DNA of 64,000 bases from a virus. The DNA lies in IMG/VR virus record IMGVR_UViG_3300045988_174992. The stretch is one strand, 5' to 3'. Position numbers and translations under genes: made by a program. The notes under the pieces were generated by a model. That model was not told the origin of the DNA. It was given only the letters and a program-made list of their open reading frames with translations, and did not search any database. Shown here one piece after another: positions 14,265 to 62,341 of this stretch; the first letter of the stretch is position 1; each line of letters begins with the position of its first letter.

Positions 14265-14459
14265 TTACTTCTCTACTTCTTTGTATTTTCTCTTCAAAAA
14301 TACTACAAACTTATCATCATACATGTGTTCAACACTAAATGCTTCCCAACCATCAGCACCATCTAGCTTACTATCTACTTGGTCATAGGTAATATCGTGT
14401 ACTGTTACAATTTGCGTACGATATTCCCATTTGTCATCTTCAATCATTTTGTATATCAT
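14265..14459 (-). CDS. hypothetical small protein (64 aa)
   Basis: ORF packed between neighbours with 3-5 nt spacers. Confidence 0.5.
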   Translation of the reverse strand: MIYKMIEDDKWEYRTQIVTVHDITYDQVDSKLDGADGWEAFSVEHMYDDKFVVFLKRKYKEVEK

Positions 14460-14462
14460 ATC

Positions 14463-14939: not shown

Positions 14940-14972
14940 TAAAACCTGTTCTGTATCTTAAATTTTTTACAT

Positions 14973-15006
14973 TTAAAATATAGAACAGGTTTTATAAATT
15001 TCAAAA
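14973..15006 (-). promoter_or_regulatory. host-type promoter inside a long inverted repeat
   Basis: Minus strand reads TTTTGAAATTTATAAAACCTGTTCTATATTTTAAATGTAA. AAAACCTGTTCT (14941-14952) pairs with AGAACAGGTTTT (14982-14993). The motif-terminal ATG is followed immediately by TAA. Confidence 0.55.
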
Positions 15007-15017
15007 TAAATATAAGA

Positions 15018-15671: not shown

Positions 15672-15904
15672 ATTATTTCATAAACAGCGCTTTAGGGAAG
15701 TTCCCTCTATTCTACATAACTCCTCATGTTGCACTTTATGGCATATCATATAAGTGTATTTCATTAATTATTCATAAAATTACAACGAGTCAGTAGCGAT
15801 TCATTGATTTGTAGCTATATAAAAATAAAATGGTATACCTGTTGAACATTAAATTTCTTTCAAGTTCAATTTTTATATAACTAAACATTGAACTTCAAAA
15901 TCAA

Positions 15905-17503: not shown

Positions 17504-17539
17504 ATAGAAAGAATTTAAATTACATTATTAAAATACTCT

Positions 17540-27970: not shown

Positions 27971-29002
27971 CTATCCTTTATCTTTTAAACGTTCAATTGC
28001 TTTCTTTGTTTCTTTATCAAGTGTTTTAGGAAATACCGGATTGACAACCATTGTATAATCATGTCCATCAATACCCTTTCCTTTTATTCTAAGTTTCTTA
28101 CCAACTTCAGAACATTCCGGAAGATTTATTCTCATCTTCTGATTACCAGGTAAATTGATTTCAATCTTACCTCCGAGCATTACATCCTTCCAATCAATAT
28201 CTTCTTTACCTTCTACATTACCATAATCATCAATATGATATTTATTATGGTCATAAGTATGTTGTACAGTAATGTAAAGTTCACCATTTGTTCCATTTAC
28301 AGATTTAGATTCAGAACCAAGTGGACCAACATCAATTCTGATACCATCTTTCAAAAGATATTCCAACGGAATTCTTGACAAGTCAATTTCTTCACTTACT
28401 AACTTGCCAATGAAACCAGTACCAGAACAAGCTGCACACTTATGTTCTACTGTCTTACCTTTACCATTACAATAAGGACATGGATGGCTAGATTGGAAGA
28501 ACATGTTTCCTTGTCGTCTAGATTCAGTCACCATACCACTACCGTTGCAATGTGAACAAACTTTAACACCAGTACCACCTACACCATCGCAAACATTACA
28601 TCTGAAGTCTTTCAAATATGCTACTGACTTAATACCTCTAAAATAGAAATCAGAAATATCAACATTCAATTTTCCTTCGCAATTCTTACCTCTCAAATCT
28701 CTATAATCTTCAGTATGCCAAGATGGTCCACTTGACCTATCATGTCCGAAGAAATCAGCAAATGGATTGAATCCACTACCGAAACCAGGATTGTCATATT
28801 CTTGCTTCTTTTGTGGATCTGACAAAGTTTCATAAGCTTCATTAGCAGATTTTACAATCTCTTCAGCTTCTTTCTTCTCCTTATCAGATTTGTTACCCAT
28901 TCTATCTGGATGATATTTGAGCATTATTTTCTTATATGCTCTTTTGATATCATCTTCTGATGCATCTCTAGATACACCTAAAATATCATAGTAATCTTTC
29001 AT
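27971..29002 (-). CDS. dnaJ: DnaJ (Hsp40) co-chaperone, type I
   Basis: J domain DYYDILGVSRDASEDDIKRAYKKIMLKYHPDR. Four CxxCxGxG zinc-finger repeats (CNVCDGVG, CSHCNGSG, CPYCNGKG, CAACSGTG). C-terminal substrate-binding region present. Confidence 0.9.
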   Translation of the reverse strand: MKDYYDILGVSRDASEDDIKRAYKKIMLKYHPDRMGNKSDKEKKEAEEIVKSANEAYETLSDPQKKQEYDNPGFGSGFNPFADFFGHDRSSGPSWHTEDYRDLRGKNCEGKLNVDISDFYFRGIKSVAYLKDFRCNVCDGVGGTGVKVCSHCNGSGMVTESRRQGNMFFQSSHPCPYCNGKGKTVEHKCAACSGTGFIGKLVSEEIDLSRIPLEYLLKDGIRIDVGPLGSESKSVNGTNGELYITVQHTYDHNKYHIDDYGNVEGKEDIDWKDVMLGGKIEINLPGNQKMRINLPECSEVGKKLRIKGKGIDGHDYTMVVNPVFPKTLDKETKKAIERLKDKG

Positions 29003-29025
29003 GTTATTTATTATCTATTCTTTGA

Positions 29026-29062
29026 CATGTTAAATATAGAAAATGGTCGATCAAATTTCATT
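29026..29062 (-). promoter_or_regulatory. promoter variant upstream of dnaJ (-33 box ATGAAAT instead of TTTGAAAT)
   Basis: Minus strand reads TTAATGAAATTTGATCGACCATTTTCTATATTTAACATG, 26 nt before the dnaJ ATG. The spacer arm CGACCATT pairs with AATGGTCG. Confidence 0.45.
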
Positions 29063-29102
29063 AATTCAACCGACCATTCAAATTGTTATTGATATAAATT
29101 AT

Positions 29103-31058
29103 TTATGCATCTTCAACTACAGCATCTTCTACTTTTACATCATCTGATTTTTCTTCTTTCTTATCATTGTCATGATTTGACGCATTCTCTTCCTTTGCAT
29201 TTCCTTCCTGTGTCTCTGTCTTATCAGTACCATCTTGGCTCTTTTGCTTATCGGCATAGAATTTCTCAACTATTGGGTTCCAAACTTCTTCCAACTCTTT
29301 CTTAGCTTCCATGATCTTATCATGGTCTTTGTCCTTCAATACAACAACTGATTCCAATGCATCAAGTTTTTCTTGTGCTTTAGCTCTATCCTCATCTGAT
29401 GTAGCTTTGACAAAATCTTCATTGACAATCATCTCTTTTGTATTGAACATGTAACGTTCTGCATCATTGATGTCATTAGTTTCTTTTGTCTTCTTTTCAT
29501 CAGCTTCCTTGAACTTCTCAGCATCTTCCTTGATTGCTTTGATTTCCTCATCAGTAAGTGTATTGTTACTGATTGTAATGTGCTGTTCTTTATTAGTACC
29601 AAGATCCTTAGCAGTAACAGTAACGATACCATTTGCATCAATATCAAAGCAAACTTCAATCTGTGGTACCCCAGCTTTTGCCATAGGAATTCCATCCAAT
29701 CTGAATCTACCAATAGACTTATTACCAGAAGCAATCTTACGTTCACCTTGCAATACATTTACCTCAACCATAGGTTGGTTATCAATAGATGTGGTGAATA
29801 CTTGCTTCTTCTGACATGGAATTGTTGTATTTGCTTCAACAATAGGTGCCATCATATCTCCCTTAGTTTCAATACCTAATGACAATGGAGTAACATCAAG
29901 AAGCAACAAATCACCAGTAGAATTACCAGCAAGAATATCAGCTTGCTTAGCAGCACCTAATGCAACTGCTTCATCTGGATTTACAGATTGATTCAATGGC
30001 TTATTGAATTCCTTCTTCAATGCCTCTTGCAATGATGGAATACGAGTTGTACCACCTACAAGTAAGATACAATCAATATCATCATACTTCTTACCAGCTT
30101 TCTCAACAGCAACCTTTGCTTTTTCAACTGTGCGATCATTCAAATTCTTTACAAGAGATTCAAACTTAGCACGAGAAAGTGTCATAGCAAGATTCAATGG
30201 TGCACCATCTTTCATAGAAATATATGGAAGATTAATCTCTGTCTGTGTTGAACTTGACAATTCAATCTTTGCTTTTTCTGCAGATTCTACTACACGAGCA
30301 TAAGCCATATTATCCTTTGTCAAATCAACATCATCTGACTTCTTAAATTCATCAACTACCCACTTTACAATAGCATCATCATAGTCTTTACCTCCAAGAT
30401 ATACATCACCATTTGATGCAAGTACTTCAGCCATACCATCTGACAACTCAAGGACAGAAACATCAACAGTACCAGTACCTGAATCCACTACTACAACAGT
30501 CTTGTCTTTCTTGTCTTCCATCAAGTTAGCTGCCAATGCTGCTGATGTTGGTTCATTAATCACACGAAGTACATTCAATCCAGCAAGCTCACCAGCTGTC
30601 TTAGTTGCTGTACGAGCAGCATCACCAAACCAAGCTGGTACTGTAATTACTGCATCTTTGATTTCCTCACCAACAAAATCTTCAGCAATTTTTTTCATCT
30701 TACCAACAATCATAGATGAAATCTGTTCTGGAGAATATTCCTTATCATCAATCTTAACATAAGGCTTACCAGACTTATTTACAATATCATAAGTTGCAAG
30801 CTTTTGCATCTTCTTTACATTTTCATCATTGAAATCAGCACCCATCAAACGCTTTACAAAACTGATAGTGTTCTTTGGATTTGTTACCATTGCACGCTTT
30901 GCGGCATTACCAATCTTCACTTCATCCTTTGTAATCTGTACTACAGATGGTGTTGTTCTTGTTCCTTCTTCATTTACTACTACAACTGGTTTACCTGCCT
31001 CAATTACTGCTACACACGACATACCCGTGCCTAGATCTAGGCCTAAAACTTTACTCAT
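29103..31058 (-). CDS. dnaK: DnaK (Hsp70) chaperone
   Basis: 651 aa. GLDLGTGMSCVAV, DAVITVPAWF, VIDSGTGTVDVS-type and LVGGTTRIPS motifs. A substrate-binding domain and acidic C-terminus are present. Confidence 0.95.
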   Translation of the reverse strand: MSKVLGLDLGTGMSCVAVIEAGKPVVVVNEEGTRTTPSVVQITKDEVKIGNAAKRAMVTNPKNTISFVKRLMGADFNDENVKKMQKLATYDIVNKSGKPYVKIDDKEYSPEQISSMIVGKMKKIAEDFVGEEIKDAVITVPAWFGDAARTATKTAGELAGLNVLRVINEPTSAALAANLMEDKKDKTVVVVDSGTGTVDVSVLELSDGMAEVLASNGDVYLGGKDYDDAIVKWVVDEFKKSDDVDLTKDNMAYARVVESAEKAKIELSSSTQTEINLPYISMKDGAPLNLAMTLSRAKFESLVKNLNDRTVEKAKVAVEKAGKKYDDIDCILLVGGTTRIPSLQEALKKEFNKPLNQSVNPDEAVALGAAKQADILAGNSTGDLLLLDVTPLSLGIETKGDMMAPIVEANTTIPCQKKQVFTTSIDNQPMVEVNVLQGERKIASGNKSIGRFRLDGIPMAKAGVPQIEVCFDIDANGIVTVTAKDLGTNKEQHITISNNTLTDEEIKAIKEDAEKFKEADEKKTKETNDINDAERYMFNTKEMIVNEDFVKATSDEDRAKAQEKLDALESVVVLKDKDHDKIMEAKKELEEVWNPIVEKFYADKQKSQDGTDKTETQEGNAKEENASNHDNDKKEEKSDDVKVEDAVVEDA

Positions 31059-35957: not shown

Positions 35958-36563
35958 TTACTTTATAAATTCTGAATCATCTATAGTACATATCTTATTC
36001 TCTTTAAATGATTTCTGTACATCTATGATTCTCTGATTAGTACTTCCTCTAAATGGTATTGTTATGTTTCTTTTTTCCTTTACATAAGGTCCATCAATTA
36101 TAACATCACAATTCTTAATTACTTCTTTATGAGGATAATTATTCAAATCTTCAATGAAATATCCCGTATAAAGCCAAATACTCTTTTCTGGATATCTCTT
36201 CTTTATATTAGAAAGAAACTTAGCAAGTTCTTCTAATGCTTGTACAGACTGATCTAATGGGTCACCGCCAGAAATTGTTACACCATCAATATGTTCATCA
36301 CCTATCAAATTCAATATCTTGTCTTTATAAGTGATGTTTGTATATGGTACCATATCATCTAACTTATGACCTTGAGCATATTTCCAAGTATGCTTATTCT
36401 GACAACCAGGACATGCATGTGTACATCCAGATACCCATATAGTTACTCTAAAACCAGGACCATTATTGATATCTGGACCAGTAACTGCTATGATATGTAA
36501 GCCGTTAGACTTGTCTATGTGCAAGTTGTTAGACTTGTCTATATGTAAATCTTTTGTTTCCAT
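35958..36563 (-). CDS. nrdG: anaerobic ribonucleotide reductase activating protein (radical SAM)
   Basis: GPGFRVTIWVSGCTHACPGCQNKHTW (NrdG-type C.x3.C.x2.C cluster). SGGDPL motif. Sits immediately downstream of nrdD. Confidence 0.85.
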   Translation of the reverse strand: METKDLHIDKSNNLHIDKSNGLHIIAVTGPDINNGPGFRVTIWVSGCTHACPGCQNKHTWKYAQGHKLDDMVPYTNITYKDKILNLIGDEHIDGVTISGGDPLDQSVQALEELAKFLSNIKKRYPEKSIWLYTGYFIEDLNNYPHKEVIKNCDVIIDGPYVKEKRNITIPFRGSTNQRIIDVQKSFKENKICTIDDSEFIK

Positions 36564-36612
36564 ATTTATAATATAGAATCAGGATGAACTTAAGTTCACC
36601 CTGATTTGATTT

Positions 36613-37656
36613 TTAAATTAGATTTTGTTCTACATGCTTTAATCGTTTAGAAACTTCATCTTGTTTACCTTCATTCATATTGGAAACATCAGTACTAAGG
36701 TAACCAGTGACCATTCTTAGTTCCTCTATGTTATGGCTTCCACAATGTGGGCATGTTCCATTGAAATCACCTTTGCTATGACAATCTCGGCAGTAATCCA
36801 GTGGAAAATGCAAAGAGAAATATGGAAGATCCTTATCCATTGCATAAACCACTAATTCTTCACAAGCATCTATATTGTTAGTTGCTGAACTTGGCATTTC
36901 AACATAAGTGATGCATCCAGCATTACTGAACTTATCTAATTCACTTTCAATATCAATTTTCTTGAAGCAATCAATATCTTTATATACAGGTACATGAGTT
37001 GAATTTGTAAAGAATTTGTTATCATTATCAGTAACACCTTTAACATCATTACCATATTGTGCTCTGAATTTTGTCATTGCTGTCTTACAAAGTGATTCTC
37101 CTGGAGTCAAATATACTCCAAAATTCAACTTATCATTTTTCTTGAATTCTGCACATCTGTCATTGAATAGCTTTTCAATTCTCTTTCCAAGTTCAAGTCC
37201 TTGAGCTTCTGTCTGGTCACACCCAATCAATATTTGCAATGTTTCTGCTAATCCAATTTGTCCGATAGCTAATGTACCATGTTTCATAGCAGATACAGGA
37301 CCTTCTTCATGGATATATCCTACCATTGTATTGTTTGTCCACATGAATGGAGCAGACTTAGAATTCTGGCTGCAAATCAAAGTAAATCTTTCAAGAAGCA
37401 TTTCTCTTGCTTCATGGATCTTCTTATCAAGCAACTTCATGAATGTTTCTACTACATCTTTGCTACCAGATTCTTTTGCCATCATAGCTAAAGTAGGCAT
37501 AATGATAGTAACAGGGCAAATGTTTCCACGACCATCTTTTTGGTTTGCAGATAACATCCAATTGTCTTGTACTTTACCAGTTTCTGCTATCTTTTTAAAT
37601 ATTTCAAAGAAATAATTTGAATCACAATTGATATCATAACCATTATAAGTTCTACA
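36613..37656 (-). CDS. nrdD: anaerobic ribonucleoside-triphosphate reductase, exon 2
   Basis: Begins CRTYNGYD... after the intron. C-terminal Zn site CRDCHSKGDFNGTCPHCGS and glycyl-radical motif RMVTGYLS. Confidence 0.85.
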   Translation of the reverse strand, partial: CRTYNGYDINCDSNYFFEIFKKIAETGKVQDNWMLSANQKDGRGNICPVTIIMPTLAMMAKESGSKDVVETFMKLLDKKIHEAREMLLERFTLICSQNSKSAPFMWTNNTMVGYIHEEGPVSAMKHGTLAIGQIGLAETLQILIGCDQTEAQGLELGKRIEKLFNDRCAEFKKNDKLNFGVYLTPGESLCKTAMTKFRAQYGNDVKGVTDNDNKFFTNSTHVPVYKDIDCFKKIDIESELDKFSNAGCITYVEMPSSATNNIDACEELVVYAMDKDLPYFSLHFPLDYCRDCHSKGDFNGTCPHCGSHNIEELRMVTGYLSTDVSNMNEGKQDEVSKRLKHVEQNLI

Positions 37657-37953
37657 CATCTTATCTGTTATTACTAACAGGACTGACTATATGTTCCTTA
37701 TTATATAAATTGTATTTTCTATATATTAAGGCCTCACGCTCCGAATTGGTGCTTATCTCCAATTCTACTCCCTTACACTCATCAGGGATAGTCGATACAC
37801 CTTTATGACAATTAAAATTGTCAATTTAGCACGGATCTCATCCATCTATTATAAATGGACCTAACCGTTAGCAGCAGCTTATTTATTTTCTTATGCTGCC
37901 ACACCCATTAAGCATGGTTCGAGAGGTTTTAGATGGGCTGTAGTATTGCACTT
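37657..37953 (-). ncRNA. group I self-splicing intron (297 nt, no ORF) in nrdD
   Basis: Exon 1 ends ATGGGT (U at the splice site). The internal guide GCCCAT (37933-37938) pairs with exon AUGGGU, giving the U.G pair. The intron ends ...GATAAGATG with a terminal G. Joining gives VMSTMG-CRTYNGYD, matching the conserved NrdD ..PMGCR.. motif. Many hairpins are present, including the GNRA-capped CUGUUA-GUAA-UAACAG (37665-37680). Confidence 0.8.
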
Positions 37954-39408
37954 ACCCATCGTGCTCATCACTTCATATCTAGTGAATTTCTCTGCTGGTT
38001 TTACTTTAATTTCCCAACTATCTTCAATAGAGTCATAATGACCTTCTAATGACAAATAATCTTCATAATCTGGATGTTCTGACAACCATTTAGCAAATGC
38101 ACAGTATGTTGATTTGGAGAAATTGAGCAAATTCTTCAATGCACGATTCTTTTGCTCTCTATCAAATATATTACCTTTCCAGTTAGTACTCCAATCAACA
38201 TTACAATAATTAGGATAATCACGTTGTGTTGTAGATTTCAATGCTAATCTGAACAAATCATAGTTAGGACCAGGATTATTTTTAGAGCCATGAATTTCTT
38301 TACTGTATTGGAATATGCAACATGGGAATATAGCAGTACGATGATACTTACCAGTACCTTCCAATGTCATATTGATTAATGCTCTAATTATTTCACGACC
38401 TTCCTTTAAAGTACATGTACCATAATTGATGCTAGAAAATGGCAGCTGGGCACCACTACGAGATTGCAAACTATTTAGATTATGACTCATTGCTTCAGTA
38501 GCTTGACTTAATTCCTTCAATGTAGAATTCCAAGCCTTCTTCCATATCATTTTCTTCAATGGTTTCAACAATCCAACACCGGTATAAATTCTATCATCAA
38601 CACTTATATGTTTGATTGATTTAGGATCAATGTTAGGTTTAGCCCACTTCATCAATGGAATTCCATCACACCAGTTTTTGTAATGCTTAAAGAAACTCTT
38701 ACGGAAATATGGTATCATTGACCAATCAAGATGTGATGCAGAAATACCACCAAACTGTTCAAGTGATTGTACTTGGAAATTTACAGCTATCAATTGGAAT
38801 GCCGTACTTAATGAATTAGCAGGACGAATATCACACTGTTTCAATGTAATACCATGTTCAAGAAGAATATCAATCGGATCAGTTAAACAATTATGCTGTC
38901 CAACTGCAAAATTTGATAAATCATGCTGATAAACCATATTTCCTTCATGATTCTTTCTTGCCATCTTCGACATGTTGTTTTTCAAAGCATAATCTTTACA
39001 AACAACTGCTCCAGCTTCACCAATACGGCCACTAAAGCTGTTTTCATCAAGATTGGCATTCTGGTTTACTACATTCTTGGCATAAAGTTTTGTAGCAATA
39101 TTCTTAGCAAGCTTTGTATTTGATTCTCGATACCTAGATCTCTCTTCTCGGTAAATGATGAATTGTTCTGCTGCTTCATTCTCTCCTACCGACATGAGGA
39201 AATCTCTCAAGAAATCTTGTACAGTCTCAATATCAACTACATCTTCTTTCATAGTTTCTAACCAAGCTCTTATTGATTCTGTAAACTTACTAATTAGTCC
39301 ATCAGGAACTTCTTTCTTCACTCCATTCTTATATACTTTTTCAAGTGCATGAATTGGTTTGTTAAGATCAAAGCCTTGGACTTTACCATCTCTTTTCTTT
39401 ACTTTCAT
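37954..39408 (-). CDS. nrdD: anaerobic ribonucleoside-triphosphate reductase, exon 1 (ATP-cone plus core)
   Basis: N-terminal ATP-cone-like MKVKKRDGKVQGFDLNKP. The track ORF reads 20 codons into the intron before a stop. Confidence 0.85.
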
Positions 39409-39634: not shown

Positions 39635-40717
39635 TTATCCTCCGACTGTTTTATTTTTATTCCACTTATTGAACTTAGAATTACTGATAGTAAATCCAGC
39701 AGCACCTGGATGTCCACCTGCTGTCTTTACCAAACTCTTGATCCATCTTCCAAGATTGTATTCTCTATCATCATCTTGTCTTACATTATATACAGAACCA
39801 GACCATTTTCCATTAGGCAAATGTTTGAATACAATAGCATGATCTACTTTATCTGCTACTGATTCGAACATTCTGCTTGATGATGGACCTTGACAGAACA
39901 ATGCAACTGCCTTACGTTCCTTTCCATTGATAATGAACTTCCAATCAAAATCACCGTAGTTGTTTACTAACTGCTTATTCTTATAGTTTTCATAATCAAC
40001 AATACTTTCTGCTTCAAGTACGGTTTCACTAATGAAGTTTCTTCCATAATCAGATTCAGAACCATCATCATACATGATATGCTTTACACAATCATATACT
40101 TTATCAAAATCTAGCTCAAAGTCTCTATTGATTACAAGATTGACACCATAACAATCATCTAATTCAAGACAATACTGATTTGGATGGAAGCTGTCCCAAC
40201 CGGCAAGATATTGGAGCAACTGTGGCATATTACCCTTATTCTGGTTGATTCTAAGTACATCAAACAAATGTTCATAAACCAATCCAATTGTTGAAGTAGT
40301 TGTTGCTCTATATCCAGGTGTATCATCATACCCATGTTGCTTTGCTAATGCTAATGCTGGGCCATGATGGTCAAACCAACTAAAGCCTAAATGGCAATTA
40401 TATGCATCACGCAAGAACTTCATTACTTTCCAATTGTTGAATGAAATATCAAGCATATATACATGTCCAAATTTGGTTACCCAATTATAAGGGCACATAT
40501 CATTATTTCGGTCTTTAGATAAAGTATCTAGCATATTGTAATCTGCACCAAGCAAAGTAACATTTTCCTTCTTAGTCTGTAAATTTTTAGATATGCAATC
40601 AACAATCCAATGATACATCAATGCGGCAGAAAATACACCATCATTATCTTCTTTATGATATACAATCAATACTTTATTTTCATTCTCTTTTGTCAGTTTC
40701 AAAACATTCTTCATCAT
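39635..40717 (-). CDS. DHH/DHHA1-family phosphoesterase (NrnA/RecJ-like)
   Basis: Motif I is VYHKEDNDGVFSA, motif III is WFDHHGP, and the DHHA1 signature is TAGGHPGAAGFT. Confidence 0.8.
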   Translation of the reverse strand: MMKNVLKLTKENENKVLIVYHKEDNDGVFSAALMYHWIVDCISKNLQTKKENVTLLGADYNMLDTLSKDRNNDMCPYNWVTKFGHVYMLDISFNNWKVMKFLRDAYNCHLGFSWFDHHGPALALAKQHGYDDTPGYRATTTSTIGLVYEHLFDVLRINQNKGNMPQLLQYLAGWDSFHPNQYCLELDDCYGVNLVINRDFELDFDKVYDCVKHIMYDDGSESDYGRNFISETVLEAESIVDYENYKNKQLVNNYGDFDWKFIINGKERKAVALFCQGPSSSRMFESVADKVDHAIVFKHLPNGKWSGSVYNVRQDDDREYNLGRWIKSLVKTAGGHPGAAGFTISNSKFNKWNKNKTVGG

Positions 40718-51744: not shown

Positions 51745-52875
51745 TTACTTCTCTGTTGTAACAATTCGATTCAAATCAAGGTTATCAGGAGAGAACTTAT
51801 TTACAGGACCAGCACCAATAGTCTTAATTTTTGATGCATCAACACCTGCCTTGATAAGTGCATTCTTAACTGCTACTGCTCGCTTAAGTGAAAGCTCTTT
51901 ATTATATCTAGTAGAACCTTCAGTAGAAGCATATCCAGTTACCTTAATAGTACCATCAACATCTTTCAATGCATCAGCGATATCATAGATATTTGCCATA
52001 GATGTTGATTCAATCTTAGCAGTACCCTTCTTAAACTGAACCTTTGGATAAACCATCTTAGTAACTTCATTAGTCTCAATCAAAGTATTTGTCTTTGTAA
52101 GAGAATCATGCATTACCTCAATAGTTGCATTAGCATCATTAAGACTCTTCTGAAGTGTATTGATCTTTCCATTCAACATATCAACCTCTGCCTGATCATA
52201 AAGCTTAGCCTTGTTGAAAAATCGAGTGCCGTTACTTGTCTTGAAGTGATATACAATACCAGCAGTAACTTGTCCAATAGCACGTTCTGTATTGAATGAA
52301 CCTGTACCACTCAAATCATATACAACTGCTGGTCGCAAAGCAATAGTCCATGCATCTGTTACATTATAATTCAGATTAAGACCAGCCTTAACAAGCAAAG
52401 CATTGTACTCATTATGTAAAAGGAAACCGTAACCAGGACCTGCATTAGCTTCTACTTCAAACTTACGTGGCTTACCATTATACTTCCAAATAGCATTAGT
52501 AAGATTTACACGACCTGTCAAATAAGTTGAAATTCCATCAAATGTATTTGCACAATGAAAATGCGTTACCGGTTTTGACCAATTACTAAGTCCATTGATA
52601 TTTGTATTACCCTCAAGTGTTACACCAAATACTGGAGTAATCTCCTTATTGATAACAATACCGGCTACAGCACCCTGTGGCCAATTCCACTGATTGAGAT
52701 TAGTCTCAACACCACCAACTACACCAGCAGAAACATTGTCTGTGAACTTAGAACTACCGGAATAGTTAGACTGTGTCTGAGCATTAACACTAAATACTGC
52801 TGTCAAAGCCAGCAACATTGTCAAAATAAACTTCTTCATTTTTCTTTTAATTTTACTTTTTAAATTATTAAACAT
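51745..52875 (-). CDS. OmpA-family outer-membrane protein (beta-barrel plus OmpA C-terminal domain); likely true start at 52839
   Basis: Signal peptide MKKFILTMLLALTAVFSVNAQ. Gly/aromatic-rich beta-strand region. The C-terminal FKKGTAKIES...VTGYASTEGSTRYNKELSLKRAVAVKNALIKAGV matches the OmpA-like peptidoglycan-binding domain. Confidence 0.85.
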   Translation of the reverse strand: MFNNLKSKIKRKMKKFILTMLLALTAVFSVNAQTQSNYSGSSKFTDNVSAGVVGGVETNLNQWNWPQGAVAGIVINKEITPVFGVTLEGNTNINGLSNWSKPVTHFHCANTFDGISTYLTGRVNLTNAIWKYNGKPRKFEVEANAGPGYGFLLHNEYNALLVKAGLNLNYNVTDAWTIALRPAVVYDLSGTGSFNTERAIGQVTAGIVYHFKTSNGTRFFNKAKLYDQAEVDMLNGKINTLQKSLNDANATIEVMHDSLTKTNTLIETNEVTKMVYPKVQFKKGTAKIESTSMANIYDIADALKDVDGTIKVTGYASTEGSTRYNKELSLKRAVAVKNALIKAGVDASKIKTIGAGPVNKFSPDNLDLNRIVTTEK

Positions 52876-57459: not shown

Positions 57460-58572
57460 TTATAAATTATTAATATTAATATAGAAACATCTATCACATG
57501 ATTTCATATTATATGAATTCATATCATATTGTTCCTTTGTTATGGCAAATTGACATCTTGCTTTTGGTGACATCATTTCCCATAAAGTTGCATGATTTAT
57601 GAAGTCTAAATCTTCAAAATAAGGAACAACCACATATTCTGATGACAACATAGTGAAATGTGTATTTCTATCAGTTGGTAATTTGATGAAAACAACATTT
57701 GAATTGAATTTCTTTTTCAAATCTTCCATAGCACCACTGTTGTTTGGATCTGTATAATACACAATAACTACATCGGCATAGTCATAATTGATATATGAAA
57801 TGACATCATCCACTTTATACCCTTCATCAGTCAATCTATAAGGAATATAATAAATAGAATAAGTACCTGTATCAAGACTATTAACTGTTTTAATAGTATC
57901 TTTCAATCCAAAATCTGTCATATAATCAAAATATTTCAGATTACGGTCAACCATCATATAATAAGGGTATATTGAACAATTTGGTAATGAAAATTTCTTT
58001 AATTGTGTTGGACTTTCTACAATTGACCAATCAGAAAGTTGAAACAATTTAGTATTCAAAATGTCATATCCCTCTAAGAAATTTCTTGTATGTTCATTAT
58101 CAATCTTACAAACTGGGCACCAGAAAACCTTTTCAAGTCTTCTAAACCAATATTGATCGCACAATAGATTTCCTAAGAATTGACTTTCAAATATTACAAT
58201 ATTAAAATCATTACCATTATCTGGATTGTTTATAAGTTCAAACAATTCCATTTCCATCTTACCCACAACATCATAATCACTTCTTTGTTCACCTGCATGC
58301 TTACCAAAATTATCTGACCAAATGATTTTAATGTTATCATTGTCTTTTATCCAACTATCAACAATATCATGTGATTCATTATTTTTTGGAAGCAATATTG
58401 TTAAACTTTTGAAATTCTTATGATGTTCAAAAAATGTAATGAAACGTACTACATTTCCATCACTATCTAAATTATACTTATTAGTCTCTCTATTAATAGA
58501 AGATATAATAGGTATGTACAAGATATTCTTATCTTGCATGTGATCGTCTACAAATTTCTTATCTATTGTCAT
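57460..58572 (-). CDS. putative second glycosyltransferase (weak BGT-like C-terminal motif)
   Basis: The ATG at 58572 (MTIDKKF...) overlaps the upstream stop by 14 nt; the track start is a GTG. DFINHATLWEMMSPKA weakly parallels BGT NFITLRVWETMASDA. Confidence 0.35.
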   Translation of the reverse strand: MTIDKKFVDDHMQDKNILYIPIISSINRETNKYNLDSDGNVVRFITFFEHHKNFKSLTILLPKNNESHDIVDSWIKDNDNIKIIWSDNFGKHAGEQRSDYDVVGKMEMELFELINNPDNGNDFNIVIFESQFLGNLLCDQYWFRRLEKVFWCPVCKIDNEHTRNFLEGYDILNTKLFQLSDWSIVESPTQLKKFSLPNCSIYPYYMMVDRNLKYFDYMTDFGLKDTIKTVNSLDTGTYSIYYIPYRLTDEGYKVDDVISYINYDYADVVIVYYTDPNNSGAMEDLKKKFNSNVVFIKLPTDRNTHFTMLSSEYVVVPYFEDLDFINHATLWEMMSPKARCQFAITKEQYDMNSYNMKSCDRCFYININNL

Positions 58573-58882
58573 GATCCTTTTCTTGCAATTTACATGATAC
58601 TTCATGAATAATATTGAATATGCTATCAATAAGATAGTCAAATTCTTCTTTATATTCACTACAAAGCCTTGAACCTTCTAATTGCTTATGTACATTTTTC
58701 ATTACATGATTCCATCTGTCTGGTTGTACAATAGGTTCACATGCTTTCTTCTTAACTCTTCCTATCAATATAGCATTATTCATTCTAGAAATCAAGAGGT
58801 TAACCAATGATCGGTCACCTCTTGTAATTTCTGCTCTACATGATTTGAGAAGTTTCAAATCCGAGTTAGTTATGTTAGTCAT
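58559..58882 (-). CDS. hypothetical protein (107 aa from ATG 58882)
   Basis: MTNITNSDLK... starts 8 nt inside the end of the U32-like gene. The longer track ORF (to 59014) lies within that gene. Confidence 0.5.
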   Translation of the reverse strand: MTNITNSDLKLLKSCRAEITRGDRSLVNLLISRMNNAILIGRVKKKACEPIVQPDRWNHVMKNVHKQLEGSRLCSEYKEEFDYLIDSIFNIIHEVSCKLQEKDHDNR

Positions 58883-60020
58883 ACAAATTATGTTCTTTAG
58901 CAAATTGTTCACAATAACGACAAGAATAACCACATTCATGGTTTTCACATTCCCATCCATTTCCATCCATCCACTTATTGATGAATCCATCAAGTTTCTT
59001 ATTTGGAATATCAATATCTGTTTTAGACTTCAATTCTGTCTTACCATCATAAATCGAGGAAAGAGGTTTCCATAATCCGAGAAGATTTCCATCATAAGTT
59101 TCTGACATATAAGCATTCATTATATATTCAAGATACTCAGTTGTTCCTGTTCTTCCTGATAACTTAAAATAATTTACTCCTGTTTTTTCTCGATAAATTT
59201 TCTGATCCTCTGGTCTAATCCATCGCATTCTTAGCCAAGCTTCTGGAGTAGATGAACGTGCAGACATACAATAACCCATTGGATAATTATTGTAAGACAT
59301 ACTATCCTCTTTTGTTTTGTTACATGCATGACAAAGATAACAAGAATCTCTGAATACACAATGAGTAGCATAATGATTTCCATTTGCATCTACTCCGGCA
59401 ACACCACAAAATTCATTTGCCATACATTCTAATATGCAACCATTTCTATCACAATAATCTTGTGCTTTAATCAAAAATTCCTTATTACGATTCTTAAGAA
59501 TTGAATTACAGAACTTATTTACTCCAAATGTTTCATGATAATACTTCAACTGGGTTACAGTATCAATATGAGAAATACATGACATCTCAATTTCAATATC
59601 CGATACTTCTCTAATAAAAAGCAACATCATTGGATTTGCCACAGTAATACGTACTACACCAATATTTTCAAGCCATTTTACAAGATCCTGAATATCCTTC
59701 TTATGATTCAACATCTCTATCTTTGAACCATAAGGTTGAATTGAATTCATTGTATAGTTGAATGCAATATTGTTATTCTTCAACTTCTTTACATAATTTG
59801 CAAAGAATTCTTTATCAATATCTGGCAATCTCCAACCTGGTCTTGCAGTTACTGCTTCATTACTTGCATCAGATCCAAAAAATTCTACAATCTGTGACTT
59901 ACCCTTATATTTCTTATTCAACTCTACAGCAACATCAATCAATTTAGGATCGAAATTACAACCTACTTTATAAAAGTTCATGTTCTTGTTACTGTAATCA
60001 AAATTAGGTTTCCAACTCAT
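58875..60020 (-). CDS. peptidase-U32-family (PrtC/RlhA/TrhP/UbiU-like) Cys-rich protein
   Basis: TIM-barrel-like N-terminal layout typical of U32 proteins (..VEFFGS..ARPGWR.., IAFNYTMN, IGVVRITVANP). Cys cluster CDRNGCILECMANEFCGV...HCVFRDSCYLCHAC sits at the position of the U32 Fe-S/signature region. Confidence 0.5.
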   Translation of the reverse strand: MSWKPNFDYSNKNMNFYKVGCNFDPKLIDVAVELNKKYKGKSQIVEFFGSDASNEAVTARPGWRLPDIDKEFFANYVKKLKNNNIAFNYTMNSIQPYGSKIEMLNHKKDIQDLVKWLENIGVVRITVANPMMLLFIREVSDIEIEMSCISHIDTVTQLKYYHETFGVNKFCNSILKNRNKEFLIKAQDYCDRNGCILECMANEFCGVAGVDANGNHYATHCVFRDSCYLCHACNKTKEDSMSYNNYPMGYCMSARSSTPEAWLRMRWIRPEDQKIYREKTGVNYFKLSGRTGTTEYLEYIMNAYMSETYDGNLLGLWKPLSSIYDGKTELKSKTDIDIPNKKLDGFINKWMDGNGWECENHECGYSCRYCEQFAKEHNLYD

Positions 60021-60050: not shown

Positions 60051-60089
60051 TAATGATAATATAGTAATTAGACTAAAACAGGTTCAAAC
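60051..60089 (-). promoter_or_regulatory. host-type promoter of the U32-to-kinase operon, overlapping a terminator hairpin
   Basis: Minus strand reads GTTTGAACCTGTTTTAGTCTAATTACTATATTATCATTA. The 10-bp inverted repeat AACAGGTTCA / TGAACCTGTT is at 60077-60086 / 60097-60106. Confidence 0.5.
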
Positions 60090-60337
60090 TATTGTCTGAA
60101 CCTGTTATTAAAATCTTGCATATTCATTGCTAATACTTCTGCTGTCTTAGTAGATTGCATTATGTAAACTGCTTTACCAGAAAATGCATCTGCTGCTACT
60201 GTTTTCAGGTGCCAAATTACCCCAGTTTCTATTTCAGTATAATTTGGACATGTCTGATGATATATCCATAATGAAATTAAACTAATAAAACACGCACCTA
60301 ACAGTATTCCTAATAAGATTAATCCAACTTCTGCCAT
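60089..60337 (-). CDS. small membrane protein (82 aa)
   Basis: N-terminal TM segment GLILLGILLGACFISLISLWIY. Confidence 0.55.
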   Translation of the reverse strand: MAEVGLILLGILLGACFISLISLWIYHQTCPNYTEIETGVIWHLKTVAADAFSGKAVYIMQSTKTAEVLAMNMQDFNNRFRQ

Positions 60338-60342
60338 ATATA

Positions 60343-60852
60343 TTAATTAAATGTAAATTCCATTTCATAATAAGGATAGAATTTTTCTGACAATGACATT
60401 CCATTTCCTTCTTTAATAGACATTCTCTTACCACTAAGTCTCTTATAAAGTACTCTACCATCATTAAGGTGAACAGTAACATCAGTATAGTGATTCCATA
60501 TCTTACCATTAAGTATTGAATGGAATTTTACCTCTTTTACAGTTCCATAAGTAGTCTTTGACAACTTAACATCAGTATTGATTGTAGAATCACCTGTAAG
60601 TGAATATTCAACTACTGTCATTGTACCATTCTTATGTACATACTCATTTCTAATGAATGAAGTAGGTGTTATACAGCAGAAGTAAATTCCTACTAAACAT
60701 ACAATGATAATAGCTAAACTTCCAAAGAAACCTTTCTTATCATATCTGATATCATTCACAATATCAAAATTGCTTTCACTAAATGTTGAGTAAATGCAAT
60801 ATCCAAAGAACAAGCAAACTGATAACAATATTAAAATAATATCAATAACCAT
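60343..60852 (-). CDS. membrane protein (169 aa from ATG 60852)
   Basis: The track start is a TTG (60861). Two N-terminal TM segments. Confidence 0.6.
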   Translation of the reverse strand: MVIDIILILLSVCLFFGYCIYSTFSESNFDIVNDIRYDKKGFFGSLAIIIVCLVGIYFCCITPTSFIRNEYVHKNGTMTVVEYSLTGDSTINTDVKLSKTTYGTVKEVKFHSILNGKIWNHYTDVTVHLNDGRVLYKRLSGKRMSIKEGNGMSLSEKFYPYYEMEFTFN

Positions 60853-60874
60853 AATAATCAAATTTTTAAATTAA

Positions 60875-60909
60875 CATTATTAATATAGAATCTTTATAGA
60901 AAATTTCAA
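60875..60909 (-). promoter_or_regulatory. host-type promoter
   Basis: Minus strand reads ATTGAAATTTTCTATAAAGATTCTATATTAATAATG. Confidence 0.5.
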
Positions 60910-61199
60910 TTTAATTGCATCTTTTTACTTAAAATTCTCTGATAGATACTATACCTTACTTCTATACTAGCTAAGTTTAATTTTATATTTGATTCACGTT
61001 CTGATGCAGACAATGGCCTTTCTGATATGTATGGCACAGTCAAGTCATAATCAAATGTATACCAAGTCTTCCAAAGAAACTTGTGCTTCTTCTTATATAT
61101 AGCCCATTTGATATATACAGTAGTTTCTTCTGTTGGAGGAAACCCTACTTTTATATTTACTGGTCTACTATCTCTTTCTATTTCTACTATTCTACTCAT
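60906..61199 (-). CDS. hypothetical protein (97 aa from ATG 61199)
   Basis: The track start is a TTG inside the promoter motif. The ATG at 61199 (MSRIVEIERD...) abuts the -7 box. Confidence 0.55.
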   Translation of the reverse strand: MSRIVEIERDSRPVNIKVGFPPTEETTVYIKWAIYKKKHKFLWKTWYTFDYDLTVPYISERPLSASERESNIKLNLASIEVRYSIYQRILSKKMQLN

Positions 61200-61238
61200 A
61201 TTTATAATATAGTAAAGTATGTATAAACTTTTCAAAAG
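61200..61238 (-). promoter_or_regulatory. host-type promoter, leaderless arrangement
   Basis: Minus strand reads CTTTTGAAAAGTTTATACATACTTTACTATATTATAAATATG. Confidence 0.55.
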
Positions 61239-61273
61239 TATTTTTACATATATAAGATTTATTCAATTTGAAA

Positions 61274-62341
61274 ATGAAGTACAATGGAACAAACTACATT
61301 ACTGAACTGAAATCTATAGAATATATAGTAGAGAAGAACAGTAACAGTAAAGTAGAAAATCATACACAATTTACTAAGCTTAAGAAAGTAGAAAGAATAA
61401 TATTGATAGGTGAACTTTACTTGAATTCAGTAAAGATGCTTAAGAGAGATAAGATAAAAGTAGAATATGCAGATCCAACTAAGCTCAATTTTTCTTTCAA
61501 AGATGATAAGGTACATATATACAGTGGAGAGAAAGATTTACCTGATATAGTACTTACTAAAGCAGATTCTAAGAATACCATAGTATTGATGCGTAGTGGA
61601 TATACTAAGGAAGTGATAGCAGCTTTACTTGATGCCATCCAAGAATTAGATATACTGATATTGAACAACCAAGAAGCAGTAGCTATGTCATCTGACAAAT
61701 ATGCAACTGCATGTTTCTTGACAAAATCAGAACTTCCACAGCCAAAGTATGTACTTGCAACTTCTAGTGATATAGATAAAGAAGATCATAAGAAGCTAGA
61801 TGAAAAGCTAAAGCAACTCTATGGTAAGCTGGATGACGAATTAAAGTATGTTTGCAAGATATTGAATGGTCATGGTGGTAAAGGTGTATTTTGCTGTCGC
61901 GGAAAAAACATTGTATCTATATTGCAATGTTTGTTCAAACTGAAAGAAAACTGCCCTATACTCATACAAGACTTTCAAGAAATAAAAGATGGTGATATCA
62001 GAGCTCATGTACTTACATTGAATGGAAAGCAAAAGATATTGTCTTCTATCATGAGAAAGAAGGGAAAGGATTTCCGAACTAATCTCAGTCTTGGGTGTGA
62101 TATGGAAGATAATTACAAGATGACTCCAGAACAAGAAAAACTAGCTTTAGATGCTGCTAAAGCATCTGGATTGGAATGGTGTGGTGTAGATATGCTGCCA
62201 TTACAGAATGGAAATACTATAATAGTAGAATTGAATGGTGCACCAGGACCAAGTTCACCTATCAATGATCCTAACATAGAAGAAAATAATTTTAAGTTCT
62301 TCGAAAAGCTAGTAGAAGCTATAAATGAACTTTGTAAATAA
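61274..62341 (+). CDS. RimK-like ATP-grasp ligase 1
   Basis: The first ATG is 61274 (the track starts at a TTG). VCKILNGHGGKGVFCC, IQDFQE..DGDIRAHVL, RKKGKDFRTNLSLGC and WCGVDMLP...IIVELNGAPG match the RimK/ATP-grasp signature. Confidence 0.75.
   Translation: MKYNGTNYITELKSIEYIVEKNSNSKVENHTQFTKLKKVERIILIGELYLNSVKMLKRDKIKVEYADPTKLNFSFKDDKVHIYSGEKDLPDIVLTKADSKNTIVLMRSGYTKEVIAALLDAIQELDILILNNQEAVAMSSDKYATACFLTKSELPQPKYVLATSSDIDKEDHKKLDEKLKQLYGKLDDELKYVCKILNGHGGKGVFCCRGKNIVSILQCLFKLKENCPILIQDFQEIKDGDIRAHVLTLNGKQKILSSIMRKKGKDFRTNLSLGCDMEDNYKMTPEQEKLALDAAKASGLEWCGVDMLPLQNGNTIIVELNGAPGPSSPINDPNIEENNFKFFEKLVEAINELCK

Follow-up and report, generated by a model that had tools for sequence, protein, structure and literature searches.

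The 64-kb stretch of viral DNA analysed here (the window) encodes a 381-aa U32-family iron-sulfur enzyme, the gene of which overlaps a chorismate mutase (CM) gene. This enzyme is best explained as an O2-independent, prephenate-dependent pyrimidine C5 hydroxylase that feeds DNA glycosylation, and we consider it probable that this is its activity. An earlier note on this DNA had proposed anaerobic C5 hydroxylation followed by glycosylation. Computational support for that route came from the overlap of the U32 and CM genes, the recurrent linkage of both and the homology of the adjacent GT-B glycosyltransferase; in addition, the window holds no ThyA-type synthase. On these grounds we infer the route.

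The U32 protein

The ORF to which the earlier note had assigned U32 membership was present as claimed (Table 1) and was matched by PF01136 above the gathering cut-off (24.2 bits vs 22.4; residues 109-170 only). Because this margin is small, membership was backed by hhalign, fold and PDB-profile comparisons. The ORF matched phrog_5757 at 1.5e-111, and precomputed PF01136 assignments were found in most of its metagenomic homologues among the 120 matches listed. Using hhalign, a family profile of 92 sequences (A1) was aligned with Escherichia coli RlhA (97.5%, E 6e-12, 200 columns), TrhP (96.1%, E 3e-9) and UbiU (92.5%, E 4.8e-7), while UbiV was unmatched (4.8%). Searching PDB sequences with this profile gave 5d88_A at E 4.5e-8; with the single U32 sequence no match was obtained, so that a profile search was needed. 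Structure prediction with AF2 (pLDDT 96.1, pTM 0.94) likewise yielded a confident U32 barrel, for which 5d88 was the top Foldseek match (E 1e-8, TM 0.67 on target), followed by generic TIM barrels more than three orders of magnitude behind. Among isolated phages, no near DNA match to this stretch was found.

The cysteine cluster reported previously was recovered, with C205, C221, C227 and C251 conserved, and was joined by a second conserved motif, a C-terminal CX4CX3CX2C (C358/363/367/370). Patterns were searched in a 9-sequence alignment, the 92-sequence alignment being too diverse for this purpose. The family-conserved C221/C227/C251 align with C169/C176/C193 of UbiU, defined as [4Fe-4S] ligands in PMC6747719. 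A four-Cys motif, CX6CX15CX3/4C, is present in most U32 subfamilies, occurs as a variant in UbiU and UbiV and is missing from 2/10 subfamilies (PMC6747719). At the canonical fourth Cys position the phage protein carries a conserved Arg (R255). C205, at least 90% conserved, is at a guess the candidate replacement as fourth ligand, and one might speculate that the C-terminal Cys4 stands in for the cluster of the UbiU/UbiV partner.

Neighbouring genes in the window

Features of the U32 region and its context are collected in Table 1. The CM gene, lying between U32 and the next ORF, had gone unnoticed in the earlier note. Its ATG overlaps the U32 stop codon by 8 nt (ATGACTAA). A tblastn search with a fusion of DAHP synthase and CM (DAHPS-CM) missed the gene, and it took phmmer on six-frame ORFs to find it. 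Its product matched PF01817 at 50.6 bits (cut-off 27; profile 1-80/80) and keeps six of the eight active-site residues of EcCM (R11, R28, K39, R51, S84 and Q88), departing from it at the other two (D48 to Q, E52 to W). It belongs to phrog_10027, annotated as 'unknown function', a family identified here as mini chorismate mutases. CM converts chorismate to prephenate. In the window the CM domain alone is retained and the DAHPS part is missing (tblastn, Pfam); neither prephenate dehydratase nor prephenate dehydrogenase was seen adjoining it.

Table 1. Coordinates of the U32 gene and of surrounding features in the window
Feature	Position	Strand	Basis or remark
U32-family Fe-S protein, 381 aa	58875..60020	(-)	ATG start; PF01136, hhalign, AF2/Foldseek, cysteines
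Type II (AroQ) chorismate mutase (CM), 107 aa	58559..58882	(-)	PF01817; overlap with U32 stop
GT-B glycosyltransferase (o399)	57460..58572	(-)	RB69 gp46:47 / DLP3 gp79 homologue; proposed base-proximal transferase
Sugar-1-phosphate nucleotidylyltransferase domain + C-terminal domain, 490 aa	55975..57447	(-)	phrog_4098; weak NCBIfam nucleotidylyltransferase models
HAD phosphatase, KdsC / KDN-9-P phosphatase type, 197 aa	55407..56000	(-)	presumed sugar-phosphate phosphatase
Second glycosyltransferase-like protein, 409 aa	54121..55350	(-)	phrog_7922 beta-glucosyltransferase, 1e-7
P-loop nucleotide kinase-like protein, 199 aa	53396..53995	(-)	phrog_761 thymidylate kinase, 6.9e-10
NrdD in two same-frame pieces (37891-39408, 36613-37659) and NrdG (35958-36563)	35958..39408	(-)	context

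The glycosyltransferase context described in the earlier note was borne out and could be sharpened, the next gene, o399, encoding a GT-B protein homologous to RB69 gp46:47. Its probable start is the ATG at 58572 rather than the GTG at 58659, the alignment to relatives beginning at about residue 27-37 in this 399-aa ORF. By hhalign, the o399 family was aligned with the GT1 (gp46:47/gp79) family (97.4%, E 1.4e-11, 264 columns), and 13 sequences bridge the two families. The AF2 model (pLDDT 92.4) matched the GT-B structures LmbT, UGT89C1, MshA 3c4q and 6kih; gp46:47 was likewise reported to match 3c4q and 6kih (PMC13326640).

The 490-aa protein shares 31% identity with its Bas46 homologue over the N-terminal ~160 aa and is presumably the counterpart of the AfhE / RB69 gp52:53-type NDP-sugar enzyme; its C-terminal half may be a kinase. 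The 197-aa HAD ORF gave 57.8 bits with NF058599 and 37.6 bits with TIGR01670, both below cut-offs, along with weak HAD Pfam matches, and belongs to another family (KdsC-like) than the HAD of the RB69/DLP3-type system. No SIS arabinose-5-P isomerase was found in the 64-kb window by tblastn, while groups B and C have one; the sugar on this phage's DNA may be other than arabinose. A dCTPase or an SIS isomerase may lie elsewhere in the ~220-295 kb genome. The 409-aa ORF matched PF13524 at 18.8 bits, below cut-off. For the 199-aa ORF, weak AAA_18, dNK and Thymidylate_kin matches were obtained and homologues were found near U32 in lineages L002, L004, L010 and L016-19; it is a possible kinase for a modified dNMP.

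The view that U32 leads an operon was not borne out, three small ORFs on the same strand (60089-61235) being located upstream. Promoter-like sites numbered 86, which is not above the shuffle expectation of 78 ± 8. NrdD and NrdG were present as the earlier note had said, NrdD being in two pieces. A recoded stop was rejected as the cause of this split, since the gap contains nine stops, and a search for Rfam introns was likewise negative. The 64-kb window contains no tRNA genes. A thymidylate-synthase-family ORF was likewise not found in it (Pfam on all large ORFs, tblastn and family HMM), although in a genome of ~220-295 kb the enzyme could lie outside the window.

Distribution and linkage in other phages

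Linkage was counted within ±10 kb of U32 in 33 de-replicated phage lineages, with 35 cellular-type lineages for comparison. CM was located within 2.2 kb of U32 in 14/33 phage lineages, at 0-33 nt in 8, and in 0/35 cellular-type lineages. A DAHPS-CM fusion abuts U32 in L002/L003, L004/L005, L010 and L061 and lies 0.5-0.6 kb from it in L016-19; L060 has a stand-alone CM at 2.2 kb. L004/L005 add DHQ synthase, shikimate kinase, DHQase-EPSP synthase, chorismate synthase and shikimate dehydrogenase. When a viral collection was searched with the DAHPS-CM of L002, no related loci were found.

The U32-CM pair occurs in distant phages, namely jumbo-phage contigs, several T-even-like genera and the Shewanella phage Thanatos. 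Directly after U32, several T-even-like genera have a mini-CM (PF01817, 36-50 bits) without R51 and ~17 residues, and in Thanatos the U32 and CM genes (TH1_065/066) overlap by 4 nt. No CM was found nearby in eleven GT1+U32 lineages or in Mosigvirus (RB69, Bas46). The ORF at the gp49 position of Mosigvirus was considered as a degenerate CM and rejected (no Pfam match; hhalign 0.1%).

GT1 was found within 10 kb of U32 in 26/33 lineages. In 6 of these the two genes abut directly as a GT1-U32 pair, with no sugar genes and no recognisable kinase nearby. Groups A, B and E keep a thymidylate-kinase-like gene within the cluster. Among isolated phages, genus-level counts agree with a restriction of U32 to phages that also have GT1. 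The converse does not hold, as ~40 Escherichia GT1 phage records are without U32, so that even where the host is a facultative anaerobe U32 is not a requirement.

The ThyA-type 5hodCMP synthase, recognised by its D169N/N177D signature, was found only in the T-even-like group, where it is located one or two genes from U32, and in L051. It was not found within ±10 kb in 21 GT1+U32 lineages. A gene of L025 was rejected as a hydroxylase-type ThyA, its L143/D169/N177 signature being that of an ordinary thymidylate synthase.

The source phage is a gut-type jumbo phage, with 64 kb of a ~220-295 kb genome in the window. The closest genome-collection matches were binned with Romboutsia, Erysipelotrichales, Gastranaerophilaceae and Tannerella, host assignment here being by MAG binning only. 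Distant cellular U32 homologues are almost all from anaerobes. Acinetobacter is a strict aerobe; among 57 Acinetobacter phage records with GT1, no more than 3 had U32 and none had CM. The published DLP3 cluster is also without U32 (PMC13326640, Table 1 therein).

Proposed pathway, alternatives and known systems

From family and fold, conserved cysteines, CM identity, GT homology, gene linkage and distribution, we infer the activity, co-substrate, substrate and order of steps as follows. U32 would hydroxylate C5 of a deoxypyrimidine without O2, the oxygen coming from prephenate. CM would turn host chorismate into prephenate at the site of use; in relatives a CM fused to DAHP synthase takes its place, and one lineage adds the whole shikimate pathway. 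Deoxycytidylate before replication is the most likely substrate, cytosine in DNA a less likely one. The resulting 5-hydroxy-dCMP would be phosphorylated, possibly by the product of the thymidylate-kinase-like gene in the cluster, and then be incorporated into DNA. There the 5-OH would be glycosylated by the adjacent GT-B, with an NDP-sugar made by the products of the nucleotidylyltransferase and HAD phosphatase genes, and the second GT-like protein may lengthen the sugar chain.

Parts of this scheme have precedents. RlhA (ho5C) and TrhP (ho5U), both catalysing pyrimidine C5 hydroxylation, require prephenate (PMC5727448, PMC6599085), and in the case of UbiU/V the oxygen has been shown to come from prephenate (PMC10990095). 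RB69 DNA carries arabinosyl-5-hydroxycytosine, and the sugars of RB69 and DLP3 are ether-linked to 5-hydroxycytosine (PMC13326640), so that in relatives sugars are indeed attached through a C5 hydroxyl. According to He et al., as summarised in PMC13326640, a reconstitution of UDP-arabinose synthesis needed no enzymes besides AfhE and AfhF, and in air the ThyA homologue gives 5hodC by itself. As far as that summary goes, U32 is left without an assigned aerobic role. In T-even-like coliphages U32, often with a mini-CM, could be an anaerobic alternative to the ThyA-type synthase, analogous to the TrhO/TrhP and UbiIHF/UbiUV pairs.

The same chemistry might be directed at another substrate, either a base (cytosine or uracil) of polymerised DNA once replication is over, or dUMP, giving 5-hydroxy-dUMP instead of 5-hydroxy-dCMP. 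RlhA and TrhP act on polymers, and the lack of a recognisable kinase near the six GT1-U32 modules also fits a polymer. The thymidylate-kinase-like gene conserved in groups A, B and E, however, suits a mononucleotide route, and in relatives 5hodCMP is made at the mononucleotide level, C being fully replaced (PMC13326640); such substrates are rather unlikely. RNA is a distinctly improbable target. RlhA and TrhP, the best profile matches of the phage protein and both prephenate-requiring (PMC5727448, PMC6599085), would suggest that U32 and CM produce ho5C in rRNA or ho5U34 in tRNA, thereby tuning translation during infection, with the position in a DNA-modification cluster being incidental. That position is kept, with GT1 at most 10 kb away in 26/33 lineages and U32 confined, by genus counts among isolated phages, to places where GT1 occurs; moreover, the phage protein ends in a Cys4 tail of its own and does not have the additional C-terminal regions seen in RlhA and TrhP, and the window is devoid of tRNA genes.

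An action on the sugar side, by redox or rearrangement of a sugar phosphate or NDP-sugar, would agree with the label 'sugar or heterocycle reductase' given to RB69 gp50. The same arabinosyl-5hoC is, however, made by Acinetobacter phages without U32 (PMC13326640), UDP-Araf needs AfhE and AfhF only in the summary given there, six lineages have the GT1-U32 pair with no sugar genes nearby, and linkage to CM has no rationale in sugar chemistry, all of which makes this reading unlikely. It is very improbable that CM, DAHPS-CM and shikimate genes are ordinary auxiliary genes for aromatic amino acids beside a U32 peptidase. Phage records do name the U32 gene 'peptidase' or 'collagenase', and phrog_5045 (DAHP synthase) is counted among the auxiliary metabolic genes. 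Coincidental adjacency is nevertheless at odds with the start/stop overlaps in three unrelated lineages (8 nt in the window, 4 nt in Thanatos, several abutting), amino acid supply with a CM domain that lacks both the DAHPS part and an adjoining dehydratase or dehydrogenase, and a peptidase with the conserved Fe-S cysteines and the reinterpretation of U32 in the literature (PMC6747719, PMC10990095).

We know of no U32 substrate other than RNA and a prenylated quinone precursor, and of none that is a deoxynucleotide or DNA. There is about an even chance that the phage protein is the first of its kind, a prephenate-dependent hydroxylase that works without O2 and takes a deoxynucleotide (dCMP, giving 5-hydroxy-dCMP) or DNA as its substrate. 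It would be fed by the phages' own CM, in some jumbo phages together with a complete shikimate pathway, and would be the sole route to glycosyl-5-hydroxycytosine DNA in phages of strict anaerobes and an anaerobic backup for the ThyA-type synthase in T-even-like phages of facultative anaerobes. If the hydroxylase reading is true, prephenate-dependent anaerobic hydroxylation, so far limited to rRNA, tRNA and ubiquinone, would be extended to DNA precursors, and a second, oxygen-free route would lead to the 5-hydroxycytosine that underlies a whole class of phage DNA glycosylations. The orphan RB69 gp50 would be explained, with a rationale for the conserved phrog_5757 and the unannotated phrog_10027 in dozens of therapeutic-candidate phages. 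A phage shikimate pathway that supplies a co-substrate in place of amino acids would represent a novel type of auxiliary metabolism, and anti-restriction DNA modification is predicted to differ between the anoxic gut and aerated laboratory cultures. No U32 protein has been shown to be a hydroxylase in vitro, and none has yet been reconstituted (PMC10990095); with a single subunit, soluble and purchasable dCMP and its own CM partner, the phage enzyme could be a tractable U32 system.

Mk0906 of Methanopyrus kandleri (PDB 5d88), to our knowledge the only solved U32 structure, is a 254-aa U32 'peptidase' with 13% identity to the phage protein and covers the barrel core only. Among characterised members, the best profile match was RlhA (YdcP), the 23S rRNA ho5C2501 synthase, which hydroxylates cytosine C5 in a prephenate- and Fe-S-dependent, O2-independent manner (PMC5727448). 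It differs in its length (653 aa), its extra C-terminal domains, its rRNA substrate and, in E. coli, the lack of an adjacent CM gene. RlhA has CX6CX15CX3C; in the phage protein an Arg occupies the fourth Cys position, the putative ligand C205 lies upstream and CX4CX3CX2C is added. TrhP (YegQ) is also a U32 protein catalysing prephenate-dependent pyrimidine C5 hydroxylation, and its anaerobic role beside aerobic TrhO resembles the combination of U32 and ThyA-type synthase in T-even-like phages (PMC6599085). Unlike the phage protein, TrhP has 453 aa with its own C-terminal region and acts on tRNA (ho5U34), and TrhO is of the rhodanese type and not homologous to ThyA. The O2-independent ubiquinone hydroxylases UbiU/UbiV(/UbiT) similarly parallel the flavin/O2-dependent UbiI/H/F, UbiU sharing the U32 family with the phage protein; there, two U32 proteins pair as a heterodimer, a lipid carrier takes part and the substrate is a hydrophobic aromatic compound, whereas the phage U32 is a single protein.

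The nearest named relatives, RB69 gp50 (ORF050c), bas46_0144 and Thanatos TH1_065 (phrog_5757), share 45-49% identity with the window protein over the full length, including the same conserved cysteines. Their clusters are of the same type as that of the window, and the labels given to them do not go beyond 'peptidase' or a tentative 'sugar or heterocycle reductase'; unlike the window gene, the Mosigvirus copies have no adjoining CM. The 5hodCMP synthase of RB69 (gp48), DLP3 (gp80) and HY126, a ThyA homologue, has the same proposed product, 5-hydroxy-dCMP, for the same GT1 family (PMC13326640). It has, however, a thymidylate synthase fold and uses flavin and O2, the O source having been shown by 18O2, and is thus unrelated to U32 in both fold and chemistry.

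Family membership and cysteines of the U32 protein

The ORF that the earlier note had placed in the U32 family was present and started with ATG. Its match to PF01136 reached 24.2 bits (gathering score 22.4) over residues 109-170 only; the assignment is thin by Pfam alone and became solid once PHROG, profile and structure evidence were added. The 381-aa ORF matched phrog_5757 (1.5e-111). An exhaustive search at E <= 1e-3 returned 989 cluster representatives, most of them full-length (about 350-380 aa), and PF01136 was precomputed in most of the 120 metagenomic homologues listed. Profile comparisons were carried out with A1, a 92-sequence alignment of the family. Using hhalign, A1 matched E. coli RlhA (97.5%, E 6e-12, 200 columns), TrhP (96.1%, E 3e-9) and UbiU (92.5%, E 4.8e-7), with no match to UbiV. 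Among all PDB sequences, the sole match of A1 was 5d88_A (E 4.5e-8), which we take to be the single U32 crystal structure. The AlphaFold2 model of the ORF (pLDDT 96.1, pTM 0.94) likewise had 5d88 as best solved-structure match (E 1e-8, TM 0.67 on target), other matches being generic TIM barrels more than 3 orders of magnitude weaker.

The protein contains 16 cysteines. Family-wide (A1), C221, C251 and C370 are invariant, conservation of C205, C358, C363 and C367 is at least 90%, and the consensus includes C227; in phage-type members these eight and C171 are all invariant. The experimentally defined [4Fe-4S] ligands of UbiU, C169, C176 and C193 (PMC6747719), align with phage C221, C227 and C251 (hhalign). 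The canonical fourth cysteine of RlhA (CX3C) aligns with a conserved arginine, R255, so the phage cluster site is a variant. By analogy with UbiV, in which the first ligand is likewise displaced, the upstream C205 is a candidate fourth ligand. A C-terminal CX4CX3CX2C motif, which has no counterpart in RlhA, TrhP or UbiU, may hold a second metal centre.

Chorismate mutase beside the U32 gene

The small ORF following U32, missed in the earlier note, matched type II chorismate mutase (CM; PF01817) with 50.6 bits (cut-off 27) over profile positions 1-80 of 80. Compared with the CM domain of E. coli PheA, R11, R28, K39, R51, S84 and Q88 are kept, and D48 and E52 are replaced by Gln and Trp. Its ATG and the U32 stop codon fall within an 8-nt overlap (ATGACTAA), an arrangement typical of translational coupling. 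The next gene, the GT-B gene o399, probably starts at ATG 58572 and not at the listed GTG 58659, because its relatives align only from about residue 27-37; with this start, U32, CM and o399 would overlap head to tail. Prephenate is the product of chorismate mutase. It is the demonstrated oxygen donor in UbiU/V-dependent anaerobic hydroxylation (PMC10990095) and is needed by RlhA (ho5C2501) and TrhP (ho5U34), both of which hydroxylate pyrimidine C5 (PMC5727448, PMC6599085).

U32 was found paired with CM again in phages unrelated to one another. A fusion of DAHP synthase and CM (DAHPS-CM) lies directly after U32 in the metagenomic relatives L002/L003 (84% identity) and L010 (83%), directly before it in L004/L005 (70%) and about 0.6 kb upstream in L016-L019 (58-61%). 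In L004/L005, genes for DHQ synthase, shikimate kinase, DHQase-EPSP synthase, chorismate synthase and shikimate dehydrogenase follow 3 kb downstream, and together with DAHPS-CM are predicted to form a complete route to prephenate. In both loci, codon 25 of the DAHPS-CM gene is an in-frame TAG, which could mean that the codon is recoded, that translation starts elsewhere or that the gene is a pseudogene. On MAG-binned contigs, DAHPS-CM lies 33 nt from U32 (L061) or a stand-alone CM 2.2 kb away (L060). The window, like its nearest relatives (L006-L009, L011, L012, L058, L059), has kept the CM domain alone, an argument that U32 is tied to CM activity and not to DAHP synthesis.

Unexpectedly, the CM-domain HMM also matched a small protein of T-even-like phages that is labelled 'hypothetical protein' and encoded directly after U32, and Pfam confirmed seven of these as CM (36-50 bits). 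They are shortened and keep R11, R28, K39, E52, S84 and Q88, with R51 missing; the family comprises type II CMs of 78-107 aa. By tblastn, this mini-CM was found in 51 isolated phage records (Klebsiella, Serratia, Yersinia, Enterobacter, Edwardsiella, Erwinia, Pectobacterium, Providencia, Morganella, Kosakonia, Escherichia, Shewanella), none from Acinetobacter. In Shewanella phage Thanatos-1, the U32 homologue TH1_065 (49% identity, E 3e-123) and the CM TH1_066 overlap by 4 nt. The small ORF at the CM position in Mosigvirus (RB69, Bas46) was rejected as unrelated to CM (Pfam, hhalign). PHROGs gives 'unknown function' for the CM family (phrog_10027); in a few GenBank records the mini-CM is automatically labelled chorismate mutase, beside 'U32 family peptidase'. 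Full-text literature searches found no paper interpreting the U32-CM pair, and the NAR 2026 pathway paper (PMC13326640) nowhere mentions chorismate, shikimate or Fe-S.

Glycosylation genes and the ThyA-type pathway

The o399 protein had no Pfam or PHROG match. By hhalign its family matched that of RB69 gp46:47 and DLP3 gp79, here called GT1 (97.4%, E 1.4e-11, 264 columns), and 13 sequences matched both families (phmmer). Its AlphaFold2 model (pLDDT 92.4) is GT-B, with matches including MshA 3c4q and sucrose-phosphate synthase 6kih, which were also reported for gp46:47 (PMC13326640). That family was proposed, from synteny and without reconstitution, as the first transferase onto the base (PMC13326640). 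After o399 follow, in order, a nucleotidylyltransferase-containing 490-aa protein, a KdsC-like HAD phosphatase, a second GT-like protein and a thymidylate-kinase-like protein. All of these lie on one strand, spaced by -26 to +125 nt, and a search of this strand from about 61.2 kb down to 52.9 kb found no terminator-like site. The glycosyltransferase-like context described in the earlier note was borne out. U32 need not lead the unit, as that note had it, since three small same-strand ORFs lie upstream. No SIS isomerase of the arabinose route was found in the window, whose HAD phosphatase belongs to a different family from that of the route.

In RB69 and Acinetobacter phage DLP3, arabinosylated 5-hydroxycytosine replaces C, and the 5-OH is put on dCMP by a ThyA homologue that binds flavin and, as 18O2 labelling showed, uses O2 (PMC13326640). 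The U32 homologue RB69 gp50 appears there in a table only, as 'sugar or heterocycle reductase', with no experiment (PMC13326640). The ThyA homologue of T-even-like phages is encoded one or two genes away from U32, and among the loci compared it was restricted by family HMM to this group and L051; L025 was rejected as a weak match with ordinary thymidylate synthase residues (L143/D169/N177) in place of the D169N/N177D signature of the hydroxylase. None was found by Pfam, tblastn or HMM in the 64-kb window, about a quarter of the genome. Following de-replication at 90% U32 identity, 33 phage-type lineages remained: GT1 lies within 10 kb of U32 in 26 and directly abuts it as a two-gene pair in 6; CM lies within 2.2 kb in 14 and at 0-33 nt in 8. 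The hydroxylase-type ThyA homologue occurs in 6/33, CM plus GT1 without it in 10/33 and GT1 only in 11/33. Near U32 in 35 distant cellular-type lineages, none of the three was found.

Coordinates of features in the window and in compared loci (L-numbers)
Feature	Position	Strand	Remarks
U32	58875..60020	-	381 aa
CM	58559..58882	-	107 aa, between U32 and next large ORF
o399	57460-58572	-	GT-B, homologue of RB69 gp46:47 / DLP3 gp79; probable start
RimK-type ATP-grasp ligase	61268-62341	+	divergent from cluster
OmpA-domain protein	51745-52875	-	376 aa, conserved at cluster end in relatives
DHH/DHHA1 phosphoesterase	39635-40717	-
nrdD	36613-39408	-	two same-frame pieces, 505 aa and 348 aa
DnaK and DnaJ	27971-31058	-	adjacent; DnaK full-length, 651 aa (HSP70 680 bits); DnaJ 343 aa
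ORF	17540-22501	+	1653 aa, no Pfam match
HAD_SAK_2 'Swiss Army Knife RNA repair' phosphatase domain	13576-14259	-
RNA ligase (PF09414)	11286-12623	-
ORF	6291-9809	+	1172 aa, no Pfam match
ORF	1203-4856	-	1217 aa; Pfam shows DEAD/ResIII helicase core only
L002, RimK-type ligase relatives	6313-9110		two paralogues, one fused to NlpC/P60 domain
L004 (L005 same), shikimate genes	14314-19311		include DHQase II-EPSP synthase fusion; phage contig
L008, insertion	12558-13798		extra ~1.2 kb between o399 GT and nucleotidylyltransferase gene; absent from window
L114, Yersinia phage TG1 gp050	5387-5680		mini-CM
L115, Thanatos TH1_066	5989-6246		mini-CM
L068, L073, L074, L078, L081, L082, L095, L099	around 7.5-11.2 kb each		tandem U32 paralogues

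Elsewhere in the window, anaerobic NrdD and NrdG are encoded, as the earlier note had stated. The nrdD pieces lie ~240 nt apart with nine stop codons in the gap, and about 200 residue-equivalents at the junction lack a match to the NRDD profile. No Rfam intron matched at the split. The interruption could come from an intron not yet recognised or from some other insertion, or the gene could be truly split. All of the closest DnaK relatives sit on contigs of phage size (about 260-300 kb). The RNA ligase and HAD_SAK_2 domain suggest an RNA repair module.

Distribution, rival explanations and known systems

GT1 was found in 349 isolated phage records, 57 from Acinetobacter, a strict aerobe. U32 was found in 222; Acinetobacter is not among their ten commonest genera and hence accounts for at most 3. 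Some 40 GT1 records from Escherichia also have no U32, which makes it dispensable to some phages whose hosts are facultative anaerobes. The published DLP3 cluster contains no U32 (PMC13326640). The window phage grouped with IMG/VR contigs of 194-294 kb. The closest genome-collection matches (92%) were binned with 'uncultured Romboutsia sp.', others with Erysipelotrichales, Gastranaerophilaceae, Bacillota and Tannerella; such binning is weak evidence of host, and the OmpA-domain protein hints at a Gram-negative-type envelope, at odds with Romboutsia/Bacillota. Cellular homologues (23-30% identity) are from almost exclusively anaerobic organisms (Clostridia, Aminicenantes, Desulfobacteraceae) and frequently occur in tandem pairs.

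Most economically, the findings are read as in the earlier note with an oxygen source added, a reading that we consider moderately probable: U32 would be a prephenate-dependent, O2-independent pyrimidine C5 hydroxylase, the overlapping CM would supply its prephenate, and the new hydroxyl would serve the adjacent GT-B as its acceptor. For phages whose hosts are facultative anaerobes, U32 would act as a backup to the O2-dependent ThyA-type enzyme. A mononucleotide substrate is favoured by the conservation of a thymidylate-kinase-like gene in the cluster and by the known route's use of dCMP; U32 might instead act on DNA or on dUMP. Against the hydroxylase reading weigh the non-canonical Fe-S site and CM active site and the many U32 and GT1 lineages without CM; to our knowledge, moreover, no U32 enzyme acts on deoxynucleotides. 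That none has been reconstituted so far (PMC10990095) counts against it as well.

Were U32 instead engaged in sugar synthesis, its absence from Acinetobacter phages that form the identical sugar-base adduct and the two-gene GT1-U32 modules without sugar genes would be difficult to explain, and, as summarised in PMC13326640, UDP-Araf synthesis was reported with two other enzymes; this role is disfavoured. So is RNA hydroxylation, given the tight linkage of GT1 to U32 and genus-level counts that fit U32 being confined to GT1-bearing phages. The start/stop overlaps in independent lineages and the retention of the CM domain alone in the window speak against a protease, and against a coincidental auxiliary gene for aromatic amino acids.

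The proposed oxygen-free entry to DNA hypermodification is a U32-CM module, to which a phage shikimate pathway is sometimes added; no description of this combination was found in the literature searched. U32 anaerobic hydroxylases and glycosyl-5-hydroxycytosine phage DNA are each already known. The adjacent cellular U32 paralogues of Clostridia and other anaerobes recall the UbiU/UbiV heterodimer, and the proposed pairing of U32 with the ThyA-type enzyme would parallel TrhP backing up TrhO and UbiU/V backing up UbiI/H/F.
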